Source: an uncultured Actinomycetes bacterium
Lineage (GTDB): Bacteria > Actinomycetota > Actinomycetes > S36-B12
Assembly (NCBI GenBank): GCA_963842725.1
Contig: CAWJHN010000003.1
Span: forward strand, 107,536-171,535
Direction: 5' to 3'
Length of the DNA stretch: 64,000 nucleotides
The notes below the pieces were generated by a model. That model was not told where the DNA came from. It made no database searches and saw nothing but the letters and a program-made list of their open reading frames with translations. Within the stretch, counting starts at the first letter, position 1, and each line of letters opens with the position of its first letter. The position numbers were made by a program, and so were the translations under genes. Positions 12,543 through 22,804 of this stretch are shown here, one piece after another.

Positions 12543-12807
12543 GGCTTGCCACCCTTCACCTGACCCGACCTGCGGGCGTGTTGTCCCAGTGCTTGCGGAC
12601 GGTAGCGCCGCGTCCGCCCCCCTGCAGGCGGATTGGCCAACTCCGTTGCACATGTGACAGAAGTGACGTGTGGGATGAGGTGTGAGTGATCCCACACGGG
12701 CCTCCAGCGACCGTCCGTCTTTCGGACAGCCACGATTCGGGCTCAAGACCGCTGCTTACCGTCGATAGTGCTGCTGGTCCTGACGCGACACCCGTCGCGC
12801 CCCGGCG

Positions 12808-12966
12808 GCCCGCCGAGTCGGCCACGGACCACGCGTGGCGGTACCGGGGACCCAACCGGTCGGGCAACCGACCACGGGGCGAATCAGATGCGAGCCGGCC
12901 ACCGCCGGGCAGCATCGGTAGGGCGACCTTCACGCCCGAGCCCGTCAGCTCACCTGGGAGGCGGCG
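12808..12966 (+). ncRNA. c-di-AMP (ydaO/yuaA) riboswitch
   Basis: Conserved blocks gccgagtc...ggtaccggggaccc...ggggcgaatc...gtagggcgaccttc...cccgagcccgtcagctcacc...ggaggcgg; upstream of a peptidoglycan hydrolase, the typical actinobacterial context. Confidence 0.85.
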
Positions 12967-12983
12967 ATCGAAGGAGTTCCACC

Positions 12984-13634
12984 ATCCGTTCCACAACGCG
13001 CGCAACCGCCATCGTGTTCGCCCTCATGTCCGCCCTCATCGCCGGCGTCGCCTACCTCATGGTGCCGCCGGCCGCTCAGGCACAGACCCCGGTACCGGCC
13101 ACTGGCGCGGTCGTCACGGCCGCCGAATTCGCGGACGTGACCCGGGCCGCCGCGATGCAGGAGGCGGCCATCGGCTTCGCGGCCCAGCGCGCTGCCGCCG
13201 CCCAGCACCTGGCTCGACAGCGGGCGTACCAGACCCGCAACGCGAAGGCCATGCAGGTCCAGCGGCTGCGCGACCGCATCGTCTCGATCGCGCGCAAGCA
13301 GGTCGGCGATCGCTACTCCGCCGGCGCATCCGGCCCGAGCAGCTTCGACTGCTCCGGCCTGACCCGCTACGTGTACCGGGTCGCGGTGGGCAAGGCGCTG
13401 CCGCACCAGTCGTACGCGCAGTACTCGCGCGTCAAGAAGATCTCCCGCAAGAGCGCCCGCCCGGGCGACCTCGTCTTCTTCTTCCGCGGAGGCGCGCACC
13501 ACGTCGGCATCTACATCGGCAACGGCCGCATGGTCGACGCCGCGGGGTACGGCAAGGGTGTGCGCGTCAGCCCCATCACGGGGTCCTGGTGGTCGCGGAC
13601 CTACAGCGGGATGGGCCGCCTTCTGCCGGCGTAG
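12984..13634 (+). CDS. Secreted NlpC/P60 (C40) peptidoglycan endopeptidase; start uncertain (ATC 12984 or ATG 13026)
   Basis: FDCSGL, PGDLVFF and HHVGIYIG motifs; signal peptide ending AAQA. Confidence 0.88.
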   Translation: MRSTTRATAIVFALMSALIAGVAYLMVPPAAQAQTPVPATGAVVTAAEFADVTRAAAMQEAAIGFAAQRAAAAQHLARQRAYQTRNAKAMQVQRLRDRIVSIARKQVGDRYSAGASGPSSFDCSGLTRYVYRVAVGKALPHQSYAQYSRVKKISRKSARPGDLVFFFRGGAHHVGIYIGNGRMVDAAGYGKGVRVSPITGSWWSRTYSGMGRLLPA

Positions 13635-13740
13635 GACGACCGACGCCCGAATGGGGCCGCAGGTCCCTCGGGCCGGCGTCCGCTCGGGCCGCTTTGACTC
13701 GGGCGGACGCCCTTTGGCACGCTGGCCAGGGAGGTGGGTT

Positions 13741-14592
13741 GTGGTCCGGTTCGAGCGTGGTGACCATCATGCCGTCGACCTTGCCTTGACCAAGTCCGGG
13801 CGGCGGGTGAGCGTCTGCATCCCCGCGCACAACGAGGCCCGCACGATCGGGCCGATCGTGCACCGCATCCGCACCAGCCTCATGGACCGGACCGGGCTCG
13901 TCGACGAGCTGATCGTCCTCGACCACGCCTCGACCGACGCCACCGCCGCCGTGTCACGGCGCGCAGGTGCCCGGGTCGTCGCGGCGAACGCGATCCTGCC
14001 GGACTTCGGGCCCGCCGTGGGCAAGGGCGACGTCCTGTGGCGATCGCTCTTCGTGTCGCAGGGTGACCTCATCGTGTGGATCGACGGCGACCTCGCGTCC
14101 TTCACCCCCGCCTACGTGACCCGCCTGATCGAGCCGCTGCTGCTCGATCCTGCGGTCTCGCTGGTCCGGGCCAGCTACGAGCGGTCGCTCGACGGCGCCC
14201 GCGCGGAGGGCGGACGCGTCACCGAGCTGACCGCTCGCCCGGCCCTGCACCTGCTCCGCCCCGAACTGGCCCACATCCGCCAGCCGCTCGGCGGCGAGTA
14301 CGCGATCAGGCGGGACGTCGCGGAGATGGTGCCGTTCGAGGTCGACTACGGCGTGGAGATCGGACTGCTCATCGACGTTGCCGACACGTACGGGATCGAC
14401 TCGATCGCCCAGGTCGACCTCGGCCTGCGGGTCCACCGCAACCGGCCGCTCAGCGAACTGAGCGATCAGGCCGGCCAGGTGCTGCGGTCGGTCCTTTCCC
14501 GTTCCGGCAGCCCGCAGGTGCGTGGCGGGGTCCCATTACGACCCCCGATGTCCGAGGCACGCGTACTGCCGCCCGTCACGCTGCCCGGGTAG
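13741..14592 (+). CDS. gpgS: Glucosyl-3-phosphoglycerate synthase
   Basis: IPAHNE, GKGDVLWRSL, IDGD, GGRVTELTARP, QPLGGEYA, YGVEIGLLID, HRN. Confidence 0.85.
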   Translation: MVRFERGDHHAVDLALTKSGRRVSVCIPAHNEARTIGPIVHRIRTSLMDRTGLVDELIVLDHASTDATAAVSRRAGARVVAANAILPDFGPAVGKGDVLWRSLFVSQGDLIVWIDGDLASFTPAYVTRLIEPLLLDPAVSLVRASYERSLDGARAEGGRVTELTARPALHLLRPELAHIRQPLGGEYAIRRDVAEMVPFEVDYGVEIGLLIDVADTYGIDSIAQVDLGLRVHRNRPLSELSDQAGQVLRSVLSRSGSPQVRGGVPLRPPMSEARVLPPVTLPG

Positions 14593-14630: not shown

Positions 14631-15998
14631 TCAGGACTTGCGGGCCGGCGGCTGGCCCGCCAGCGGCATGCGGATCACGACGTCGAGGCCGCCCCAGCGT
14701 GACGCATGGGCGGCGGCCGAGCCCCCGACACCGACCACCGACTCGCGGACCAGGGCCAGACCCAGGCCGCTTCCCCCGGGCACCGAGCTGCCGCCCCGGG
14801 TGAAGCGGTCGAAGATGGCCTCGCGCTCGTGGCGCGGCACGCCCGGGCCGTCGTCGGCGACGGACAGCAGCGCTTCGCGGCCGGCTTGTCGAAGGTCGAC
14901 GTGCACGCGGGCCTTGGCGTACTGGAGGGCATTGCCGAGCAACTCGTCGACGACCCGCGCGAGCATGCCCGACGGCGCCTGCACCAGGACGTTCTCATCC
15001 AGGCTGGAGGTCAGCTCGACGTTCCGCTCGGCGAACATCGCCCCCGCCGCCTCGAGGCGGTCGCCGAGGATGTCCGACGCGTTCTGCGCGCCGACGGGGG
15101 CGCTGCCGGCATCCGTCCTCGCCAGGGCCAGGACCTGCTCGATCCGCCGGTTGAGGCGATCCACCTCCGTGGTCGCCGCGCGGGCCTCGGACGCGACGCG
15201 CTCGTCCGTCGTGATGTCCTCGATCGCCTCCAGTCGCAGCCGCACCCCGGTCAGCGGCGTGCGCAGGTGGTGCGAGGCGTCGGCGGCCACGCGCTCCTGC
15301 CGGCGCACGATCCCGGATAGTCGACGGGCCGTGCTGTTCAGCGCCGAGGCAACCGCACGCACCTCCATCGGACCGTGCGACTCGTCCGCCCGCAGCTGCA
15401 GGTCCTCGGGAAGGTCAGCGGCGACCCGGGCGACGCGACGCAGGGGGGAGGCGATCGAGCGGGACAACTGCCAGGCGACCAGGGCCGCGCCCACCATGAC
15501 GCTGAGCACGAAGACGATCAGCCAGCGCTCCGTCTCGCGCACGGCGTCGGAGACGATCGACTCGGGCAGGGAGAGCCGGATCGCGGCCACCACCCCGCCG
15601 TTCTGGACGACCGGTGCGGCCACATACCGGAGTTCCTCGCCGAGGGTGTTCGACTCGCGAACGGACGAGGTCAGGGAGCCCGCGAGGGCCTGGCTGATCT
15701 CTGGCCGGTCGAACAGCCGGTCCAGCGAGGAGTTGTCGCTGTCCGCGATGAGGTTGAGGTTCCGATCGACGACGACGACGCGGGCCCCGGTTCGCTCGGC
15801 GGCCTGCTCGGCAGTGATCTGCCAGTCCACATAGGGCTCGGCCGCCATCGTCGATGCCGTCGACAGCGTGTCGACCTCGAGCCCGGATACGAATGCGGCC
15901 CGCTGGTCGTTGGCCACCACGATGGCCATGGGCACGGCAAGAGCGATGGCCACGACTGCGACGAGCACCGTCATGGCCAGGACGAGCCTTCGGGTCAC
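14631..15998 (-). CDS. HAMP-domain sensor histidine kinase
   Basis: Two TM helices, H-box ASHHLRTPLT, N-box GNALQY, DDGPG, GSGLGL; GTGA overlap with the regulator stop. Confidence 0.92.
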   Translation of the reverse strand: MTRRLVLAMTVLVAVVAIALAVPMAIVVANDQRAAFVSGLEVDTLSTASTMAAEPYVDWQITAEQAAERTGARVVVVDRNLNLIADSDNSSLDRLFDRPEISQALAGSLTSSVRESNTLGEELRYVAAPVVQNGGVVAAIRLSLPESIVSDAVRETERWLIVFVLSVMVGAALVAWQLSRSIASPLRRVARVAADLPEDLQLRADESHGPMEVRAVASALNSTARRLSGIVRRQERVAADASHHLRTPLTGVRLRLEAIEDITTDERVASEARAATTEVDRLNRRIEQVLALARTDAGSAPVGAQNASDILGDRLEAAGAMFAERNVELTSSLDENVLVQAPSGMLARVVDELLGNALQYAKARVHVDLRQAGREALLSVADDGPGVPRHEREAIFDRFTRGGSSVPGGSGLGLALVRESVVGVGGSAAAHASRWGGLDVVIRMPLAGQPPARKS

Positions 15999-16648
15999 GC
16001 GGTATCCACCGCTAGGCGGTACCCGACCCCCCGGACGGTCTCGATGAGGTCGGCGTCGCCGAGCTTCTTGCGCAACGACGCCACGTGCACGTCGAGGGTC
16101 TTGCCCGTCCCGATCCAGACCGGGTCCCACACCCGCGCGAAGAGCTCCTGGCGGGTGACGGCACGACCCGGCTCCTCCGCGAGGACCGCGAGCAGGTCGA
16201 ACTCCTTGGCCGTCAGCTCCACGGTCTCGCCGTCGAGCAGGACGAGGTGGCGGGCCCGATCGACGACCAGCCGGCCGGATTCGAGATTCGACTCGACGCG
16301 ACGACGTCGGGCGACCGCACGCACGCGCGCGGCCAGCTCGCGGACCGAGAACGGCTTGACGACGTAGTCGTCGGCACCCAGCTCGAGCCCGACGATGCGG
16401 TCCGTCTCGTCACCTCTGGCCGTGGCGATGATGACGGGGATGTCGGACGTGCGCCGCAGCTCGCGCAGCACCTCGAGTCCGTCGCCGTCCGGCAGGCCAA
16501 GGTCGAGCAGCACGACGTCGACGTTCTGCGCGGCCGCGATGACCTCGCTGGCGTAGACCACGTGGTCGGTCTCGATGCCATTGCGCTGAAGTCCCGCGAG
16601 CAGCGGCTCGGCAACGACCGGATCGTCCTCGACCACAAGTACCCTCAT
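15995..16648 (-). CDS. OmpR/PhoB-family response regulator
   Basis: VVEDD, LLDLGLPDGDG, GADDYVVKPF, winged helix LTAKEFDLL...VRGVGY. Confidence 0.93.
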   Translation of the reverse strand: MRVLVVEDDPVVAEPLLAGLQRNGIETDHVVYASEVIAAAQNVDVVLLDLGLPDGDGLEVLRELRRTSDIPVIIATARGDETDRIVGLELGADDYVVKPFSVRELAARVRAVARRRRVESNLESGRLVVDRARHLVLLDGETVELTAKEFDLLAVLAEEPGRAVTRQELFARVWDPVWIGTGKTLDVHVASLRKKLGDADLIETVRGVGYRLAVDTA

Positions 16649-16696
16649 GCCGCCATGGTGGCATGCGCCCGGCCCGGATCGCACGCGGCCTCGCTC

Positions 16697-16726
16697 ATCC
16701 GCAAGGGACCAACGGCCCTTGCGGAT
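16697..16726. promoter_or_regulatory. 11-bp inverted repeat in the divergent promoter region
   Basis: atccgcaaggg-N8-cccttgcggat. Confidence 0.45.
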
Positions 16727-16729
16727 CAC

Positions 16730-16785
16730 CCTTACTGCCTTTTTACCTCGACGTGGTGACCTCTTGTTGGCTGGCTCCCTACCTT
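16730..16785 (+). promoter_or_regulatory. Putative OmpR-type direct-repeat box plus -10 element (promoter 1 of the ApbE cluster)
   Basis: ccttact-gcct-ttttacc (11-bp period) at 16730; TACCTT at 16780. Confidence 0.55.
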
Positions 16786-16836
16786 CTGAAGTGCCCGGAT
16801 CGCCTGATCCACCACGACGAGGACGGACACCCAGAC

Positions 16837-17316
16837 ATGACCAGATCACGCCACACGGCCACGCCGATGCGCGGCCTTCGTCGCACGTCGGCCGAGAAGC
16901 TCGTCTCCGCCGGACTCGCCACCGCCGCCTGCGTCGGTCTCGTCGGTGTCATCGGCGTCCGTTCCATCGAGGACAGCGCCGCGAGCCAGAACCAGGCCGA
17001 GCCGGCTCCCGTCGCCGTGGCCCCCGCGGCACCGGCCGTGTCCTCGTCCGGTCTCAGCGAGGCGGACCTCGACGCGTACGCCGCGCAGCTCCAGAAGGAG
17101 AGCGATCGCCTCAACGCCTACCGCGCGAAGCTGGTGAAGACGGCCAAGCAGCTCAAGTCGGCTCGGGCCCAGGCCGCGACCGCCTACAGCGCTCCCGCCG
17201 CCGACGTGCCGAGCGCGTCGTCGGGCGGCGGCTCGTCGAAGCCCGCGGCCAAGCCGGCCGCCAAGCCCGCTGCCCCCGCCGCGCCCGCTGCGCAGTCCAG
17301 CTCGTCAGGCAGCTGA
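16837..17316 (+). CDS. Membrane-anchored coiled-coil protein ending SSSSGS (candidate ApbE substrate, paralog A)
   Basis: RR followed by a TM helix with Cys, amphipathic helix LDAYAAQLQKESDRLNAYRAKL, Ala/Pro linker; clearly similar to 19988..20524. Confidence 0.75.
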   Translation: MTRSRHTATPMRGLRRTSAEKLVSAGLATAACVGLVGVIGVRSIEDSAASQNQAEPAPVAVAPAAPAVSSSGLSEADLDAYAAQLQKESDRLNAYRAKLVKTAKQLKSARAQAATAYSAPAADVPSASSGGGSSKPAAKPAAKPAAPAAPAAQSSSSGS

Positions 17317-17321
17317 CCGGC

Positions 17322-18269
17322 GTGGCCGTGGCCGAGGGCAGGTTCCGGGCCATGGGCACGGACTGCCACGTCATCGTCGTGGCCGACACGCCCATCGTCT
17401 CCGAACTCCTCCCGCTGGCAGTGGAGCGGATCGAGCTGCTCGAGGACTGCTGGAGCCGGTTCCGCCCCGACAGCGAGCTGAACCGTCTCAACGCCGCCGC
17501 CGGGCTCGGCCCGATGCCGGTCTCCAGTGACCTGCTCAACCTGGTCCTGCACATGAAGCACGCCTGGCAGTTGTCGGGTGGGCTGTTCGACCCGACGGTG
17601 CTGCAGGCCGTCCGCGCGCTCGGCTATGACGCCGACTTCGACGAGGTCGTCGCCCGCGACGCGCTGACCGGGGTCGACGAGGCCACCCTGGGGACGACAC
17701 CGGGCATGGCCGCGGTGACCTTCGATCCGCATGCCGGGACCGTGAGCCTGCCGAAGCGGGTGGGCATCGACCCCGGCGCCATCGGCAAGGGCCTAGCGGC
17801 CGACGTGGTCGCCGCGGAGCTCATGTCGGCCGGCGCGGCCGGCGTCCTGGTCAACCTGGGCGGCGACCTCACCTTCGAAGGCGTGACCTCCGATGGCTCG
17901 CCGTGGACGATCGCCGTCCAGGACGAGCGCATCTCGCCCGACCGCTCCGATCGAACGCTGCGACTGCTCGAGTTCCCGAGGCAGACCCGCCACGCCGGCG
18001 TCGCCACCTCGACCACGCTGAAGCGGCGGTGGGCCCAGGGCCGACGCCACCACGTCATCGACCCGCGGACCGGCAACATGAGCGCGAGCGACCTCGTCCA
18101 GGTCACGGTGGCCGCCGACCGTGCCTGGCAGGCCGAGATCACCGCCACCGCGGCGTTGCTCATGCCGGCCGACGAGGCTGCCGGCTGGCTGCGCGCTCGC
18201 GACATCACGGCCATCCTGCTGACCGCCGACCGCACGATCCACTCCGACGAAGAGGTTCACCATGGCTGA
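17322..18269 (+). CDS. apbE: FAD:protein FMN transferase
   Basis: FRAMGT, SRFRPDSELNRLN, GLFDPTV, DPGAIGKG, VNLGGD, VATS, HHVIDPRTG. Confidence 0.92.
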   Translation: MAVAEGRFRAMGTDCHVIVVADTPIVSELLPLAVERIELLEDCWSRFRPDSELNRLNAAAGLGPMPVSSDLLNLVLHMKHAWQLSGGLFDPTVLQAVRALGYDADFDEVVARDALTGVDEATLGTTPGMAAVTFDPHAGTVSLPKRVGIDPGAIGKGLAADVVAAELMSAGAAGVLVNLGGDLTFEGVTSDGSPWTIAVQDERISPDRSDRTLRLLEFPRQTRHAGVATSTTLKRRWAQGRRHHVIDPRTGNMSASDLVQVTVAADRAWQAEITATAALLMPADEAAGWLRARDITAILLTADRTIHSDEEVHHG

Positions 18270-18855
18270 CATTCCCTGGATGTGGCTTGGCGTGCGCGCC
18301 ACCGGCCTGACGGCCTGGGGTCTGCTGACCGCCGTCGTGCTGTGGGGCATCCTGCTCAAGACCCAACTGCTCGGCCGCGTGGCCAAGCCGATGCGACTGC
18401 TGGACCTGCACCGCTGGCTGGGTGCGGTGTCCATCGGGTTCCTGCTGATCCACATGGCACTGCTGTTCTTCGACACGTACGCTCCATACTCGATCCCGGC
18501 CCTGCTGGTGCCCGGCCTGGCGCCTGCGCCGCTCACGACGGCCGCCGCCCTCGGCACGATCGCCTTCTGGATGATGATTCCCGTCTCCGTGCTGGGTCGC
18601 CTCCGCGCGAAGATGGGCGTCGCCGGAAACCGCTGGTTCTCGGGCGTGCACCTCATCGCCTACCTCGCCTGGCCGGTGGCCACCGCCCATTACGTCCTGG
18701 CCGGCACCGACGCGCTCGCCGAGTGGTCGCTGGGCCTGCTGTTCACGGGCACGGCCCTCGTCGTGATGGCCCTGCTGGCCCGCGGGTTCGTCCCGGCGCC
18801 CGGCCCCTCGCGGGCCGTCGGCACCGATGCAAAGCGGTCCCTTACCTCCGCTTAA
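18262..18855 (+). CDS. Ferric reductase-like (MsrQ-like) transmembrane cytochrome b
   Basis: 5-6 TM helices; four His ligands (LHRWLG, LIHM, VHLIAY, AHYV); no FAD/NAD domain. Confidence 0.8.
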   Translation: MADIPWMWLGVRATGLTAWGLLTAVVLWGILLKTQLLGRVAKPMRLLDLHRWLGAVSIGFLLIHMALLFFDTYAPYSIPALLVPGLAPAPLTTAAALGTIAFWMMIPVSVLGRLRAKMGVAGNRWFSGVHLIAYLAWPVATAHYVLAGTDALAEWSLGLLFTGTALVVMALLARGFVPAPGPSRAVGTDAKRSLTSA

Positions 18856-18895
18856 CCATTGGCGGGTTGGTTCGGGGTGCTTTGCCGCATACGGT
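18840..18895 (+). promoter_or_regulatory. Putative OmpR-type direct-repeat box plus -10 element (promoter 2 of the ApbE cluster)
   Basis: ccttacc-tccg-cttaacc at 18840; TACGGT at 18890, the same 50-bp offset as promoter 1. Confidence 0.55.
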
Positions 18896-18963
18896 GGCAT
18901 CTGCGTATGCCTGTGCGAGGCAGTCGCCCGTGGCGTACTGCCCCCGAACGAGGAGAAGCCTGA

Positions 18964-19995
18964 ATGCAGCGCAGCAGTGTCATCGCCACGGTGATCGCCG
19001 CCGGCGGGATCCTCGTGGCCGGGTCGGCGGCCAGTGTTGCCGTTATCCAGGCCGCGTCGACCAGCGAGGCGGCGTCCGAGACGGTGACGCTCGTTGCAGC
19101 CGGGCAGGCCGGCAGCACGCAGAATCCCTCGACCAGCGAGGCCGACCCCACCCTGGCCCCACCCTCCACCGCCTCGACCCCGACCCTCGAACCGGTGGCC
19201 CTGCCCGAGCTTCCCGAGGTCGTCACCCAGACCGGGAGCACCGGATCCACCACCACGTCGAGCGCGGCCCAGAGCACCCGCAGCGGCACCACGGCGCAGG
19301 CCACGCCGGCCAAGCCACGCAAGCCCGCAGCCAGTCCCTTCCCGGTCACCGCTGCACAGGCCGGGGCCAAGGTGCTCAGTCAGGGCCGCGGCGCCTCAAT
19401 CGTCCGGATCAATGCGGCCAAGTACGAAGGCAGCTACGCCTGGGCGGTCCGGATCGTCCGCCCCAACGGCGAGGTGCTGACCGGCTACGTCAATCGCAAG
19501 ACCGGCGTCGTGATCGGCTGGGACGTCAACGAGCGACCCGCAGGCCGCCCGACGACTCCCACCACGGCATCCGCACCGACCGTGCAGGCCGCTCCGGCAC
19601 CCGCGCCCGCTCCGTCCAGGACGCAGGCGCAGGAGTCCGCGCGCGACGACGACGGGGAGCAGCACAGCAGCGCAGCCAACAGGCCCAGGCCCGACTCGAC
19701 CCCCAAGCCGGCACAGACGCAGACGCGGCCCAGCGCGGCTCCCAAGCCAGCATCGACGCACCGGCCGAGGCCCACGGCAGCACCCAAGCCCACGGCAGCA
19801 CCCAGGCCGACCGCCACCCCGAAGCCGACCGCCACGCCCAGGCCCACCTACTCGCCCAGGCCGACCGCGACGCCCAGGCCCACGTACTCGCCCAGGCCCA
19901 CCTACTCGCCGAAGCCGTCCGCATCCGCATCGCCGTCCCCGTCGCCCTCGTGGTCCGACGGGGAGCACCACGAGAGCGACCACGACGATGACTAG
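18964..19995 (+). CDS. Exported PepSY-like domain protein with Pro/Thr-rich stalk and His/Asp tail
   Basis: N-terminal hydrophobic signal; VTAAQA...AWAVRIV...GYVNRKTGVVI resembles PepSY; C-terminal EHHESDHDDD; SD aggag. Confidence 0.65.
   Translation: MQRSSVIATVIAAGGILVAGSAASVAVIQAASTSEAASETVTLVAAGQAGSTQNPSTSEADPTLAPPSTASTPTLEPVALPELPEVVTQTGSTGSTTTSSAAQSTRSGTTAQATPAKPRKPAASPFPVTAAQAGAKVLSQGRGASIVRINAAKYEGSYAWAVRIVRPNGEVLTGYVNRKTGVVIGWDVNERPAGRPTTPTTASAPTVQAAPAPAPAPSRTQAQESARDDDGEQHSSAANRPRPDSTPKPAQTQTRPSAAPKPASTHRPRPTAAPKPTAAPRPTATPKPTATPRPTYSPRPTATPRPTYSPRPTYSPKPSASASPSPSPSWSDGEHHESDHDDD
19765..19926 (+). repeat. In-frame 18-bp tandem repeat (about 9 units, P[RK]PTxx)
   Basis: Units such as cccaggcccacctactcg and ccgaagccgaccgccacg encode PRPTAA-PKPTAA-PRPTAT-PKPTAT-PRPTYS... 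Confidence 0.85.
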
Positions 19996-20524
19996 CCGAC
20001 GGCACACCAGCGCTCCCCTGCGCCGGTCGTCCGTCACCGGGAAGATCGTCTCCTTGACCCTTGCGGCCGCCACGTGCGTCGGCATCGTCGCCGTGATCGG
20101 CGTCCGATCGATCGACACGGTGGCCGGGGCCGCCGACAGCGTCGTCGTCGACGTGCCGTCGGCGCCCGCGGCACCCACCACCACGTGGAGCGACGATCCG
20201 ACCGGGACCGCCGGGCTCACCGCGGCGCAACTCGACGAGTACGCGGCGGCCCTCGAGGCGGAGCGGGCCAAGCTCGATGCCTACCGGGCCAAGTTGATCA
20301 AGCTCGCCAAGCGGCTCAAGGCCGACATCGCCAGGGCGAACGGCGCGGCCGCCGCGCCGACCAGGGCCACGTCCCGCTCCAGTGCACCCGCGGCGACCAA
20401 GCCCACCCGCAAGCCGGCTGCGGTCCGGGCCGGCTCGGCCACCGCGACCCCCGTCGCGGACGTACCGGCACCTGCGGACGTCGCGGGACCCGCCGACGTG
20501 CCCGCGCCGGTCGAGGGCAGCTGA
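19988..20524 (+). CDS. Membrane-anchored coiled-coil protein ending VEGS (paralog B)
   Basis: Shares CVG(L/I)V.VIGVRSI and GL..A.LD.YAA.L..E...L.AYRAKL.K.AK.LK with 16837..17316; ADVPAP repeats. Confidence 0.75.
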   Translation: MTSRRHTSAPLRRSSVTGKIVSLTLAAATCVGIVAVIGVRSIDTVAGAADSVVVDVPSAPAAPTTTWSDDPTGTAGLTAAQLDEYAAALEAERAKLDAYRAKLIKLAKRLKADIARANGAAAAPTRATSRSSAPAATKPTRKPAAVRAGSATATPVADVPAPADVAGPADVPAPVEGS

Positions 20525-20573: not shown

Positions 20574-21815
20574 ATGAGCACGTTCGGTCTGGACGGCGTC
20601 CTGCCCTGGTCGCAGGCGCGGCACGTGGCCGCGACCGCCGCCCGACCCCTGGACACCGTCGCCGCCCGCCTCGACGAGGCGGGGGGCGCCGTCCTCTCCC
20701 GTCCGCTGGCGACCGTGCAGGACGATCCACCCGCCGACAGCGCCGCCGCCGCAGGCTTCGCCGTCTGCGGCGAGGGTCCGTGGCAGCTGGACCTGCACGC
20801 CGACGTCCTGACGAGCGGCCATGGCAGCCCGGTCGAGGCCGGCGAGCCCATCCCTCGGCACACCGACGCGGTCCTCACCGAGGAGCAGGGCTCAGTGTCC
20901 GAGGCCGGCGACGGACGCTACCTGCTGCTCGCGCGGGACCCGCTCACCGGCATCCCCGACGAGCGCGTGCGGCCCGACTTCGGCGAGGGCATCGTGCGGC
21001 AGGCTGCCCATTCAACGGCTGGCCACGTCCTCGTCTCCCCAGGGAGCATCGTGACGCCCGCCGTGATCTCCCTCGCAGCCGCCGCCGGAGCCGACGAGAT
21101 CTCCATCGTCCGCACGCCAGTGGTGGGCGTACTGGTGCTCGGTGGGCACCTCCTCGACCGCGGGCTGCCGCGGCACGGCCGCGTGCGTGACGCGCTGGGC
21201 CATGCCGTCCCTGCCTTCGTCGGCGCGCTCGGAGCCCGGGGCAACCCCGCAGTGCGGGGGCCGGACACCGCTGAACTGCTGCTCCGCGAGATCGAGGACG
21301 CCGCCGTCGACGTCCTGATCACGACCGGATCGACGGCACCGGGGCCGGACAACCACCTGCGCCGCGTGCTGCGCGACCTCGGGGCCCGGTGGCTCGTCGA
21401 CGGCGTCAGCGTGACGCCCGGCGCGCAGATGCTGCTGGCCCGGCTACCCGACGGCCGGTTCCTGGTCGGGCTGCCGGGCGATCCGCCATCCGCCCTGGCC
21501 GGTCTGGTGACTCTGGTCAGCCCTCTCGTTCGGGCCCTGCGGGGCCAGGAGATCGACGCGCGGCGCCGCTCGGCGGTGCTCATGGACGACGCCCCTGCGG
21601 CGGACTTCGCCGACGACACCGCACTGGCCCCGGTGCGGCTCGAGGTGTCGACGGCCGCCACCCAGGCGCACCCGATCCCGGTGGGCGGCCCGGCCGGCCT
21701 CCGGGGCTGGGCGCTCGCCGATGCCGTCGCCGTCATCCCGCCAGGTGCCGGCCTGCGCGGCGACGTCGTCGAACTCCTCGACCCGTTCGGCCGCCACGCG
21801 GAGTCGGGGGCATGA
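20574..21815 (+). CDS. MoeA/gephyrin-like protein with degenerate active-site motifs
   Basis: MoeA layout (LSRPL, IPRHTDAV..EE, DVLITTG, LVGLPGDP.SA, LADA) but the SAMDG and TGDE motifs are altered. Confidence 0.75.
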   Translation: MSTFGLDGVLPWSQARHVAATAARPLDTVAARLDEAGGAVLSRPLATVQDDPPADSAAAAGFAVCGEGPWQLDLHADVLTSGHGSPVEAGEPIPRHTDAVLTEEQGSVSEAGDGRYLLLARDPLTGIPDERVRPDFGEGIVRQAAHSTAGHVLVSPGSIVTPAVISLAAAAGADEISIVRTPVVGVLVLGGHLLDRGLPRHGRVRDALGHAVPAFVGALGARGNPAVRGPDTAELLLREIEDAAVDVLITTGSTAPGPDNHLRRVLRDLGARWLVDGVSVTPGAQMLLARLPDGRFLVGLPGDPPSALAGLVTLVSPLVRALRGQEIDARRRSAVLMDDAPAADFADDTALAPVRLEVSTAATQAHPIPVGGPAGLRGWALADAVAVIPPGAGLRGDVVELLDPFGRHAESGA

Positions 21816-21892
21816 CGGACGTCACGCGGCCGTACCCCGCTTTCTCTGCCTATTAAGTAGGAAAAGCCGCTCGGGACGGTTAGGGTGTGCCG

Positions 21893-22804
21893 GTGACGTT
21901 TGCCGACATCGATTTCGCCCTCTCCCTGGGCGGCCTGGTGGCAGGCCTCATGGTCGGGCTCACCGGGATGGGCGGCGCGGCCCTCGTCACCCCGATGCTG
22001 GTCTTGCTGTTCGGCATCTCCCCGGCCGCCGCCGTGTCGAGCGACGTGGTCGCGTCGGCCTTCATGAAGCCGGTCGGCGCGTGGGTCCACATCCGCCACC
22101 GCACCGTGCACTGGGGACTCGTTGCCTGGCTGTCGGCCGGGTCCATCCCGGGGGTGCTCCTGGGGACGGTCGTCTTCGCCCGCGTGCTCACGTCGGACGA
22201 GGCGAGTGAGACGATCCAGACCTGGATCGGCTACGTGCTGCTGCTGGCCCTGGCCGCCATGCTCGCCAAGGTGTGGGTGGCCCGCCGCGCCAGCCACCTG
22301 CGCGAGGTCCGGATGCCGGTAGGCACCGAGATGCCCGTCCGCCCGATGCCCACGCTCCTGCTCGGCCTGGGCGTAGGCGTCCTGGTGGGAATGACGAGTG
22401 TCGGCTCGGGCTCCCTCATCGTCACCACGCTGCTCCTGCTGTACCCGCTGCTCCGGCCGTCGATCCTGGTCGGCACCGACCTGACCCAGGCGGTGCCCAT
22501 GCTCATCGCCGGCGCCATCGCCCATGCGGGGTTCGGCGACATCAGCGTCGCCGTCGTGGTTTCGCTGCTGATCGGGCAGATCCCCGGCGTGTGGGTCGGC
22601 GCCCGCATGTCGTCCCGCTACGACGGGCACGCCCTTCGCTGGCTGCTGATGGTCGTCCTGGCGGCGACGGCCCTGAAGTTACTGGGCATCTCGAGCCTGA
22701 TTGCTGGCATGATCGCCATCGTCGGGGTCATCGTCGTGAGCGCGCTGTTCGTGAGGGAACGCATTCATGCCAGGAGTCAGGAGTCGGGAAGCCCGTCACC
22801 CTGA
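21893..22804 (+). CDS. Sulfite exporter TauE/SafE (TSUP) family protein
   Basis: VGLTGMGG..LVTP, AVSSD, GMTSVGSGS, LVGTDL; TAGGGT 6 nt before GTG 21893. Confidence 0.88.
   Translation: MTFADIDFALSLGGLVAGLMVGLTGMGGAALVTPMLVLLFGISPAAAVSSDVVASAFMKPVGAWVHIRHRTVHWGLVAWLSAGSIPGVLLGTVVFARVLTSDEASETIQTWIGYVLLLALAAMLAKVWVARRASHLREVRMPVGTEMPVRPMPTLLLGLGVGVLVGMTSVGSGSLIVTTLLLLYPLLRPSILVGTDLTQAVPMLIAGAIAHAGFGDISVAVVVSLLIGQIPGVWVGARMSSRYDGHALRWLLMVVLAATALKLLGISSLIAGMIAIVGVIVVSALFVRERIHARSQESGSPSP

Follow-up and report, generated by a model that had tools for sequence, protein, structure and literature searches.

The described systems closest to the locus reported here are the MsrQ-like flavinylation clusters (Meheust et al. 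2021, PMC8238504), which are broadly actinobacterial and combine, as this locus does, an apbE gene with a cytochrome of family PF01794. A NuoF-like protein was reported for 31 of them, and a transfer of electrons from NAD(P)H to the outside of the cell was proposed (PMC8238504). Flavinylation by ApbE is known to supply redox chains outside the cytosol. ApbE attaches flavin mononucleotide (FMN) to the last residue of the motif Dxx[ST]GA[ST], Ser being accepted in that position (PMC12052999), and 'orphan' apbE genes with no substrate remain in the published surveys (PMC8238504). We analysed a 64-kb stretch of high-GC DNA (about 0.69-0.76), hereafter the window, from contig CAWJHN010000003.1 of an uncultured Actinomycetes bacterium whose genome amounts to 2.84 Mb and is 84% complete. 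Between positions 14631 and 20524 of the window an apbE gene and a small cytochrome b gene (cytb) lie together with the genes of two small anchored proteins, sp1 and sp2. The sp proteins probably act as natural C-terminal flavin-tag substrates of ApbE and take electrons from the cytochrome, as suggested by the conservation of their last residues, by the linkage of the three genes across the class and by a docking model.

Genes were called from a list of open reading frames (ORFs) combined with Pfam and NCBIfam scans and with a permissive Pfam scan (E ≤ 10). An initial annotation of this DNA had listed seven genes, namely a histidine kinase-response regulator (HK-RR) pair divergent from sp1, apbE, cytb, a PepSY-like gene and sp2, and the ORF list and the Pfam scan placed all seven at the same coordinates. 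Those on which the argument turns are the following:

16837-17316, plus strand: sp1, candidate ApbE substrate (159 aa, C-terminus SSSSGS)
17322-18269, plus strand: ApbE-family FAD:protein FMN transferase (FAD, flavin adenine dinucleotide; PF02424, 5.3e-54)
18262-18855, plus strand: cytb, small ferric-reductase-domain (MsrQ/NOX-type) cytochrome b (PF01794, 26.3 bits against a 28-bit cut-off)
19988-20524, plus strand: sp2, second candidate ApbE substrate, paralog of sp1, ending in PVEGS

MsrQ-like clusters typically include a gene with an FMN-binding domain (PMC8238504), whereas none of the cluster proteins matched FMN_bind, MsrP or NosR in any of the three scans, in agreement with the initial annotation, and the substrate domains DUF2271, DUF3570 and NqrB/RnfD were likewise missing from the cluster (Pfam). 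The candidate substrate is here, in contrast with those clusters, an unannotated protein that appears disordered.

Conservation of the sp proteins and of their C-termini

The sp1 protein consists of a basic N-terminal stub, one Gly/Ala-rich transmembrane (TM) helix, a conserved amphipathic stretch and a Lys/Pro/Ala tail that ends in SSSSGS. That sp2 is its paralog, as originally noted, was borne out by their alignment (46% identity over 149 aa, E 1e-27). Neither was assigned to any Pfam or NCBIfam family, the permissive scan included, and a search of the ESM Atlas with sp retrieved unannotated actinomycete clusters only. The tail is predicted to lie outside the membrane, given the basic N-terminal stub and the uncharged or acidic flank that follows the TM helix (positive-inside rule, read from the sequences).

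Of the 24 other genus genomes, 22 had relatives of sp1, and a search of 16 genomes belonging to other families of the order found none. An alignment of 25 sp sequences of the genus (A1) was built, leaving out five frameshifted or N-run ORFs (L037, the first copy of L038, the second copy of L034, L045 and L047, L numbers designating loci). The terminal Ser was invariant in A1 (25/25) and the C-terminal consensus read Q-S-x-T-K-[GS]-S. The TM helix was the best-conserved part, with a small-residue pattern and an invariant Cys, and a second motif at the genus level, T-[ST]-x-G-[LM]-T, was positioned before the helix. Of the coiled coil named in the initial annotation, A1 showed no more than a conserved amphipathic stretch. 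Export of sp by the Tat route through a twin-arginine signal was considered and rejected, as the Arg pair is not conserved in A1.

The gene arrangement was found in 20 loci from 20 other genomes of the genus, with the order apbE, cytb, PepSY-like gene, sp and MoeA-like gene kept, followed by a TauE gene in the loci reaching far enough. The divergent RR-HK pair was present in 19 of these 20 loci (not in L044), its RR being 79-94% identical; a copy of sp upstream of apbE occurred in 11/20 and a downstream copy in 19/20. The arrangement in the window is not a product of chance. A wider pattern scan yielded 39 loci, and the relatives were all metagenome-assembled genomes of uncultured actinomycetes, several of them labelled Candidatus Nanopelagicales. 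Other layouts appeared among them: in the D type the order was PepSY-like gene, sp, apbE and cytb, and in the E type it was NuoF-like gene, Fer4_15 ferredoxin gene, sp, apbE and cytb, with no PepSY-like gene. The genes sp, apbE and cytb thus form a trio that was constant in all the architectures of the lineage.

A cytb homolog was detected in 118 of the 301 genomes sampled from the class, and 60 loci around cytb matches, from 60 genomes of many genera and families, were taken for comparison; the counts that follow are not independent because the genomes are related to one another. In 51 of the 60, cytb was immediately preceded on its strand by an apbE gene, and 44 of these 51 pairs had a TM-anchored ORF whose stop was no more than 150 nt from the start of apbE. 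Among these 44 anchored ORFs, those of L143 (a kinase) and L150 (552 aa) encoded other proteins. A terminal Ser was found in 36, a GS end in 31 and [ST]G[GA]S in 18 of the 44, the corresponding figures for control ORFs from the same loci being 237/1723 for Ser and 54/1723 for GS. An sp-type ORF ending in -GS was found directly upstream of cytb in eight of the nine loci without an adjacent apbE, and the five genomes tested among these all encoded ApbE elsewhere. Pfam detected no FMN_bind domain in 55 flanking ORFs from 16 class loci. The initial annotation had proposed to look for small proteins ending in -GS in such neighbourhoods and had pointed out that unconserved C-termini would speak against its idea; anchored proteins with this ending do recur beside the apbE-cytb pair across the class, and the ends proved conserved, both within the genus and beyond it.

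The 41 sp sequences extracted from the class had in common only a basic stub, one TM helix and a body of 50-150 residues rich in Ser, Thr, Ala, Pro and Gly that terminated in [AT][TS][ST]GGS or a near variant. The sequence of the TM helix was not conserved class-wide, its composition alone being kept, and none of 20 class sp sequences tested (0/20) belonged to a Pfam or NCBIfam family above cut-off. The terminal Ser of 45 ends was encoded by TCG (12), AGC (10), TCC (10) and TCA (9), and the Gly at position -2 of the same ends by GGG (17), GGC (10), GGT (5) and GGA (5). As four codons serve for the terminal Ser, selection must have acted on the amino acid. Copies of sp with no apbE after them (sp2, the second copy of L140 and that of L138) kept the -GS end.

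A subset of the class sp proteins (those of L126, L129, L130, L151, L154, L157, L159, L165, L172 and L181) contained within the disordered body a beta-strand-like motif rich in Val, Ile, Arg and Lys, such as TVIIRKTILV or VVRVVVRVH. The lineage of the window has an amphipathic helix at the place where other sp proteins have this motif, which may be a docking element.

ApbE, the cytochrome b and a candidate electron donor

The initial annotation had also suggested structural modelling of the complexes, and in the model obtained the sp1 tail docked in ApbE. A single controlled job comprised ApbE (40-row alignment), FAD, Mg and residues 125-159 of sp1 (25-row alignment), both alignments being supplied by us. 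The ipSAE values were 0.91, 0.92 and 0.92, against 0.00 for the best of three controls; in the calibration of the tool, which included no small molecules, 58 out of 80 solved complexes attained the mark set, as did 2 of 110 mismatched pairs. The runs agreed in at least 68% of contacts, with a pLDDT of the partner of at least 52. The confident interface placed residues 150-159 of sp1 in the conserved cleft of ApbE, where the contacts included the invariant residues G12, K156, G180-G181-D182, W195 and T229-S230 and the near-invariant R235. Among the PDB entries of ApbE matched by a sequence search, none had a title naming a substrate, so that a docking learnt from solved structures seems unlikely.

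The ApbE of the window matched PF02424 with 184 bits over family positions 1-265 of 266 and aligned end to end with ApbE of V. cholerae (6nxi, residues 11-300, 1.4e-21). Its His244, invariant among 40 module ApbEs, aligned with the residue in which the entries 6nxi (His) and 6nxj (Gly) differ; the general-base His in catalysis is His257 of the V. cholerae enzyme (PMC12052999). The protein looks active as judged from its residues. The ApbEs of the module shared a subfamily signature, ATSS(T)xxRRW, where the V. cholerae protein has ATSGDYRNYF, and it may be speculated that the two Arg of RRW bind the C-terminal carboxylate of the substrate.

The apbE gene starts with a GTG 6 nt past the sp1 stop, and the approximately 10 residues before the first conserved motif (MGT) are too few for a signal peptide to fit in. 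In eight loci of the genus a stop in the same frame was located 2-13 codons ahead of FRAMGTD. No signal peptide or lipoprotein anchor was detected in the module ApbEs of the window, of the genus or of the class, and the gaps between sp and apbE were small. The extracytosolic flavinylation put forward in the initial annotation does not hold in the form usually pictured, given that ApbE carries no signal either here or in the relatives. A search for longer, fused forms of ApbE returned two proteins. One, P0124, was discarded as an ApbE-cytb fusion, since it looks like a frameshift artefact at the junction; the other, P0125 (560 aa, a single record), presented a lipoprotein signal and a low-complexity region of 250 residues followed by an ApbE with the ATSS..RRW signature, and would, if real, be an exported member of the module subfamily.

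The published properties of ApbE are compatible with an unusual target. Replacement of the Asp of the motif by Ala has a minor effect, and changes of Gly to Ala and of Ala to Val keep about 50% of the flavinylation (PMC12052999); a seven-residue flavinylation tag works best at the N- or C-terminus of a protein, and cytosolic ApbEs are known from Klebsiella (PMC12052999). Because changes in the motif and terminal tags are tolerated in this way, S-G-G-S-COOH is plausible as a natural tag. An apbE transposon mutant of B. breve was reported to be sensitive to a ferrous chelator (PMC5449479).

The genome contains one FMN_bind gene and three apbE genes. The FMN_bind protein begins with a hydrophobic signal and contains YVSGATYTS, a canonical motif, and its gene lies on another contig (L006, contig C1, 82-84.7 kb) between its own apbE, immediately downstream, and a NOX-like gene with Ferric_reduct, FAD_binding_8 and NAD_binding_1 domains. 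The ApbE of the window is therefore not needed for this protein, so that the service to a canonical FMN_bind protein encoded elsewhere, named in the initial annotation as what would undo its proposal, is not suggested by the genome. None of the three ApbEs had an N-terminal signal, that beside the exported FMN_bind protein included, which makes the question of compartment a general one in this genome; the pairing of a cytosolic ApbE with a substrate that is exported seems to be usual in this organism. The third apbE (L007, contig C4, about 1.861 Mb) stands beside a gene for a PMT_2/YkcB-type mannosyltransferase, and a YkcB_C fragment was seen just upstream of an sp gene in another locus (L135:8444-8668). 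A link between the module and protein O-glycosylation of the Ser/Thr-rich tethers is possible.

The start of cytb overlaps the stop of apbE. The four His of the cytochrome pointed out initially were upheld: His50, His64, His130 and His143 were invariant in 48 homologs and fell in pairs on two helices of the AlphaFold 2 (AF2) model (residues 43-68 and 92-147), which presented five TM helices and a pLDDT of 90.4. The best Foldseek rows for this model were the TM domains of SpNOX, STEAP2/4 and NOX5, with weak E values (0.02-0.2) and TMq of 0.51-0.58. The PF01794 score lies below the cut-off, as the list above records, and among five class cytb genes adjacent to apbE the scores were 36.2 (L126), 35.6 (L141) and 29.1 bits (L136), with no match in L133 and L134; the database contained 573 homologs at E ≤ 1e-10, whose source names were 'ferric reductase-like' or 'YedZ', and most of the close ones carried PF01794. 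The protein is a di-haem cytochrome b of the ferric-reductase type as judged from sequence and model, its haem binding being predicted. Only one Ser or Thr, the near-invariant Thr149, was found among the invariant and near-invariant residues, in a loop placed outside from the charge distribution. The C-terminus LTSA of cytb was considered as a cytosolic flavinylation site and rejected; it is kept only in the genus, because a DNA box (box 2, below) encodes these last residues (L-T-S-A-stop).

A candidate cytosolic donor, overlooked in the initial annotation, is provided by a NuoF-like protein (Complex1_51K, SLBB and NADH_4Fe-4S domains) whose gene is paired with that of a Fer4_15 ferredoxin on another contig of the genome (L091, contig C4, about 234.5-236.1 kb). 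It is orthologous to the NuoF-like gene of the E-type loci (60% identity, E 2.9e-158), in which the NuoF-like and ferredoxin genes are directly upstream of sp (L070:5264-6813). A NuoF-like match was obtained in 44 of the 51 class pair loci, usually directly after cytb, and was confirmed by Pfam in L138, L140 and L141. The NuoF-like protein and the ferredoxin are thus likely to be the electron donor on the cytosolic side. The NuoF-like protein was rejected as a substrate of ApbE, since a [ST]G[AG][ST] motif was not conserved and appeared only incidentally in 2 of 40 sequences inspected out of 42 aligned.

The two-component system, the PepSY-like protein and the neighbouring genes

The remaining features of the locus are the following:

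14631-16130, minus strand: sensor histidine kinase (HATPase_c 2.2e-18, HisKA 9.2e-13, HAMP 1.3e-5; Pfam)
15995-16648, minus strand: OmpR-family response regulator (Response_reg 9.7e-24, Trans_reg_C 8.6e-25)
16731-16747, plus strand: DNA box 1, CTTAC-N5-YTTWACC, in the RR/sp1 intergenic region
18841-18857, plus strand: DNA box 2, with the motif of box 1, overlapping the last cytb codons and the TAA stop
18964-19995, plus strand: anchored PepSY-fold protein, no Pfam family, fold from AF2 and Foldseek

The coordinates of the HK are those of the longest ORF, and the true start is probably a GTG near 15998 that overlaps the RR stop, as read from the translation. The HK gave weak Cache-like matches below cut-off (Pfam) and no NCBIfam equivalog at its cut-off.

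The box is a direct repeat with an 11-bp period that is conserved in the RR/sp1 intergenic regions of the genus. Exactly two matches occurred in the 64-kb window, one for each sub-operon, where 0.04 would be expected even allowing one mismatch. Of the 20 genus loci, 13 had both boxes and 19 had one or more. The RR presumably binds the box, and the presence of the same box before both sub-operons makes their co-regulation by this neighbouring regulator likely. E-type loci and the family's other genera had a single box, which was found beside the RR or before the PepSY-like gene, not before sp-apbE.

The PepSY-like protein, whose His/Asp tail had been recognized correctly at the outset, comprises an N-terminal anchor, a single domain spanning approximately residues 120-194, and a tail rich in Asp and His that has DDD as its end. 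It matched no Pfam family at E ≤ 10, PF03413 included. The AF2 model of the 75-aa domain (pLDDT 89.6) consisted of a helix (H11-21) and four strands, and was closest in Foldseek to YpmB (2gu3; TMq 0.73, rmsd 1.6); further matches were CD1622, Rv0603, YpeB, the vibriolysin propeptide, the PepSY domain of FoxB and, in rank 26, UipA (7ath), with no FMN_bind chain among the rows listed. A profile search against the PDB gave Rv0603 (2lra/2kgy, E 4e-4) and YpmB (E 0.044). A loop of the domain reads D-x-x-S-G-x-V (alignment A3), and in three D-type loci (L081:6268-6960, L085:524-1222 and L086:6211-6900) an insertion of two residues turns it, the last loop, into F-T-G-A-T-G, which contains a full [ST]GA[ST] motif not present in the other orthologs. 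The protein was nevertheless rejected as a hidden FMN_bind substrate, given its PepSY fold, the lack of an FMN_bind match, the occurrence of TGAT in only 3 of 23 aligned sequences and its absence from E-type loci. It stands outside the conserved core, being missing from the E type, and the part of metal-holding acceptor that the initial annotation suggested for it is a hypothetical one.

The five genes on the plus strand might, as an alternative, represent two neighbouring systems, a module for sensing or binding metal, of the UipRS/UipA type, formed by the two-component system with the PepSY-like protein and a separate sp-ApbE-cytochrome module, so that the PepSY-like protein would not be the electron acceptor. 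We regard this separation as possible, though not as the favoured interpretation. It agrees with the E-type loci, which lack the PepSY-like gene, with the scarcity of acidic-tailed anchored ORFs in the class (6 of 60 loci) and with the position of the box outside the window's genus, near the RR or the PepSY-like gene and not near sp-apbE. A precedent exists in the anchored PepSY protein UipA, to which uranyl and Fe(III) bind and which has the two-component system UipRS upstream (PMC9988556, PMC8963506). On the other hand, the same box marks both sub-operons in the window's genus, and an OmpR-type RR was encoded within 3 kb of apbE in 22 of the 51 class pairs. Owing to the shared box and this proximity, co-regulation and a functional link remain likely in the genus, and the UipRS/UipA-like set and the sp-ApbE-cytochrome set are, on the pattern of boxes and genes, likely to be two modules that are regulated together there.

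Just beyond the HK lie genes for an NlpC/P60 peptidoglycan hydrolase (12768-13634), a conserved neighbour within the genus, and for a family-2 glycosyltransferase (13558-14592). On the other side, sp2 is followed by a MoeA-like gene (about 20574-21815) and a TauE/SafE exporter gene (21887-22804); these two are neighbours within the family of the window only, adjoining 4/51 and 2/51 class pairs, respectively. The MoeA-like protein weakly resembles Glp, a protein of the divisome (89 bits, the cut-off being 475 bits). An identity with Glp was rejected, as the NCBIfam score is far below the cut-off and MoeA accompanies so few class pairs. A GlpR/Glp divisome pair formed with sp2 was also discarded, sp2 having 178 aa and one hydrophobic segment; GlpR has three TM helices, two cytoplasmic disordered regions and about 340 aa (PMC10522489).

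Proposed electron route, alternatives and known systems

From the gene content, the conservation, the folds and the docking model computed here we infer a flavinylation, an electron path, an acceptor and a mode of regulation that would fit together as follows. The core would be a three-gene module of sp, apbE and the small di-haem cytb, joined in most actinomycetes by a NuoF-like Fe-S flavoprotein that would oxidize NAD(P)H. The sp protein would be a type-II anchored, intrinsically disordered protein whose end, [ST]-x-G-S-COOH (class consensus A-T-S-G-G-S), would constitute a degenerate ApbE flavinylation motif, that is, a natural 'flavin tag', and ApbE would move FMN from FAD to its terminal or near-terminal Ser. 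Electrons from NAD(P)H would then reach, in turn, the NuoF-like protein, the small ferredoxin, and the inner and then the outer haem of cytb; the FMN borne by the sp tether would receive them next and hand them on to an acceptor outside the cytoplasm, for instance Fe(III), quinones or O2. The genus of the window would have sp duplicated and the module joined to a two-component system and an anchored PepSY protein of the UipRS/UipA type. As far as motifs allow to judge, sp is the only candidate substrate in the module, no other conserved flavinylation-like motif having been found in it.

Several observations weigh against this interpretation. The sp ends (SSSSGS and VEGS in the window, TK[GS]S in the genus, [ST][ST]GGS in the class) do not conform to D-x-x-[ST]-G-A-[ST] and are only motif-like, with no Asp and with Gly, Ser or Lys where Ala is usual; L158 alone reads SGAS among the 44 class ends. 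Some relatives have one or two residues past the Ser (GSR, GSG, GSGG, ASKG), and seven of the 51 class pairs were without an anchored upstream ORF passing the filter, one of which, L172, has one ending in SSGS. The flavin would sit on a bare peptide with no protein pocket to tune its potential. In the complex, the lowest-error contacts were centred on sp1 residues 153-156 and not on 159, and the docking score expresses the confidence of the model, with a calibration that held no small molecules. The most serious point is that ApbE has no signal peptide while the sp tail is predicted outside, and it is owing to this problem of compartment that we consider the proposed role of sp as probable and not more. 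Two ways out are open: the tail, being unfolded, might conceivably be moved across the membrane after its flavinylation in the cytosol, or ApbE might get outside by an unrecognized route. The proposal that the two paralogs are modified by ApbE on a terminal Ser, already made in the initial annotation, thus stands as regards the conserved ends, the lack of a canonical substrate and the docking, and is in doubt as regards the compartment.

A more detailed scheme can be drawn only tentatively, and we rate it as doubtful: the last Ser would be flavinylated in the cytosol and the tail threaded out, the tether of 50-150 residues then shuttling electrons from a minimal NOX-like chain (NuoF-like protein, ferredoxin and five-TM di-haem cytochrome) through the thick wall to acceptors outside, as a hitherto unrecognized route of extracellular electron transfer used across the class. 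Cytosolic flavinylation would account for the unfolded state of the substrate and would make a flavin exporter dispensable.

The sp proteins could instead be structural or accessory subunits of the cytochrome, contributing a sixth TM helix or a wall tether, with ApbE acting elsewhere or handling flavin as an FAD pyrophosphatase or chaperone. NOX and STEAP domains have six TM helices, and the cytb model has five. The strong conservation of the sp TM helix in the genus, with its small-residue pattern and invariant Cys, the lack of an export signal in ApbE and the linkage of sp to cytb even where no apbE is adjacent all fit such a subunit. Across the class, though, the TM sequences of sp retain only their composition, and a subunit role would leave unexplained an invariant terminal Ser on an otherwise unconserved disordered tail as well as the specific docking of this tail in ApbE; nor does any other protein of the module offer a conserved flavinylation-like motif. 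We therefore hold a purely structural role to be unlikely, bearing in mind that the roles of subunit and flavin carrier could coexist.

That the ApbE of the window serves an FMN_bind protein encoded elsewhere, the sp genes being unrelated neighbours, is very improbable: the canonical protein with YVSGATYTS does exist in the NOX-like cluster of another contig, but its gene has its own apbE, the sp-apbE-cytb linkage holds across the class, where the start of apbE overlaps or adjoins the stop of sp, and the module ApbEs form a subfamily of their own. Least credible of all is an origin of the -GS end as a by-product of the constraints that a Shine-Dalgarno sequence or an overlapping apbE start would impose on the nucleotides, or of an sp-ApbE read-through fusion. 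In its favour, the sp stop (TGA in 40/41) is in many cases overlapped by the start of apbE or adjacent to it, G-rich codons stand ahead of this stop, and sp and apbE share a frame with one stop between them in eight genus loci; against it, the usage of four Ser codons from two families and of four Gly codons largely refutes such an origin, GGAGG is rare at the sp end (by reading of the listing), copies with no apbE after them retain -GS, and the common frame in only 3 of 41 class pairs means that read-through cannot be general.

With sp as the probable substrate of ApbE, a concrete and easily testable class of candidates becomes available in a large share of the sampled actinomycete genomes. 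If the proposal is true, it would add a new type of ApbE substrate, in which a bare C-terminal peptide is a natural carrier of a redox cofactor, and the question would become how a flavinylated tail crosses the membrane. It would also define an outward electron route for actinomycetes, soil and freshwater lineages among them, with possible relevance to iron acquisition, redox stress or extracellular respiration. The literature searched, with most subscription journals and supplements outside its scope, contained no description of an ApbE substrate of the sp kind.

Judged by its genes, the system belongs with the MsrQ-like flavinylation clusters and differs from them in the candidate substrate and in the cytosolic ApbE. 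Those clusters were selected for a target gene with a signal peptide or lipidation site (PMC8238504), whereas the ApbE is here without a signal, and some loci of the module may already be listed in Supplementary file 1 of that survey (PMC8238504). The four His of cytb are shared with MsrQ/YedZ, SpNOX and STEAP, lying in two helices with spacings of 14 (His50/64) and 13 (His130/143); in contrast to those proteins, cytb has five and not six TM helices, no fused dehydrogenase and no MsrP partner.

In Listeria, the FMN_bind domains of PplA are folded, and FmnB, a lipoprotein, is exported and receives its flavin through an exporter. The extracellular electron transfer of the Listeria type (FmnB/PplA) likewise relies on a Gram-positive surface flavoprotein, on ApbE-like flavinylation and on a flexible anchor (PMC9973259). 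The present system would differ from it in having no folded domain, no exporter in the cluster and a cytosolic ApbE, with a haem protein in place of the EetAB/quinone route. The UipRS/UipA system of Microbacterium (Gallois et al. 2021, via PMC9988556 and PMC8963506) resembles the other half of the locus in its single-pass anchored PepSY protein with an acidic metal-binding face and in the adjoining two-component system; the PepSY domains of UipA are two in number and metal binding has been measured for it (PMC9988556, PMC8963506), whereas the protein of the window has one domain and an Asp/His tail, any metal binding of which is hypothetical. The nearest parallel to the sp proteins themselves is the engineered 'flavin-tag' (Tong et al. 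2021, via PMC12052999), a short C-terminal motif of which the last Ser or Thr is flavinylated with no folded domain being required. That tag is artificial and canonical (DxxSGAT; PMC12052999), whereas the sp end would be a natural and degenerate version, [ST]-x-G-S, borne on a membrane-anchored tether.

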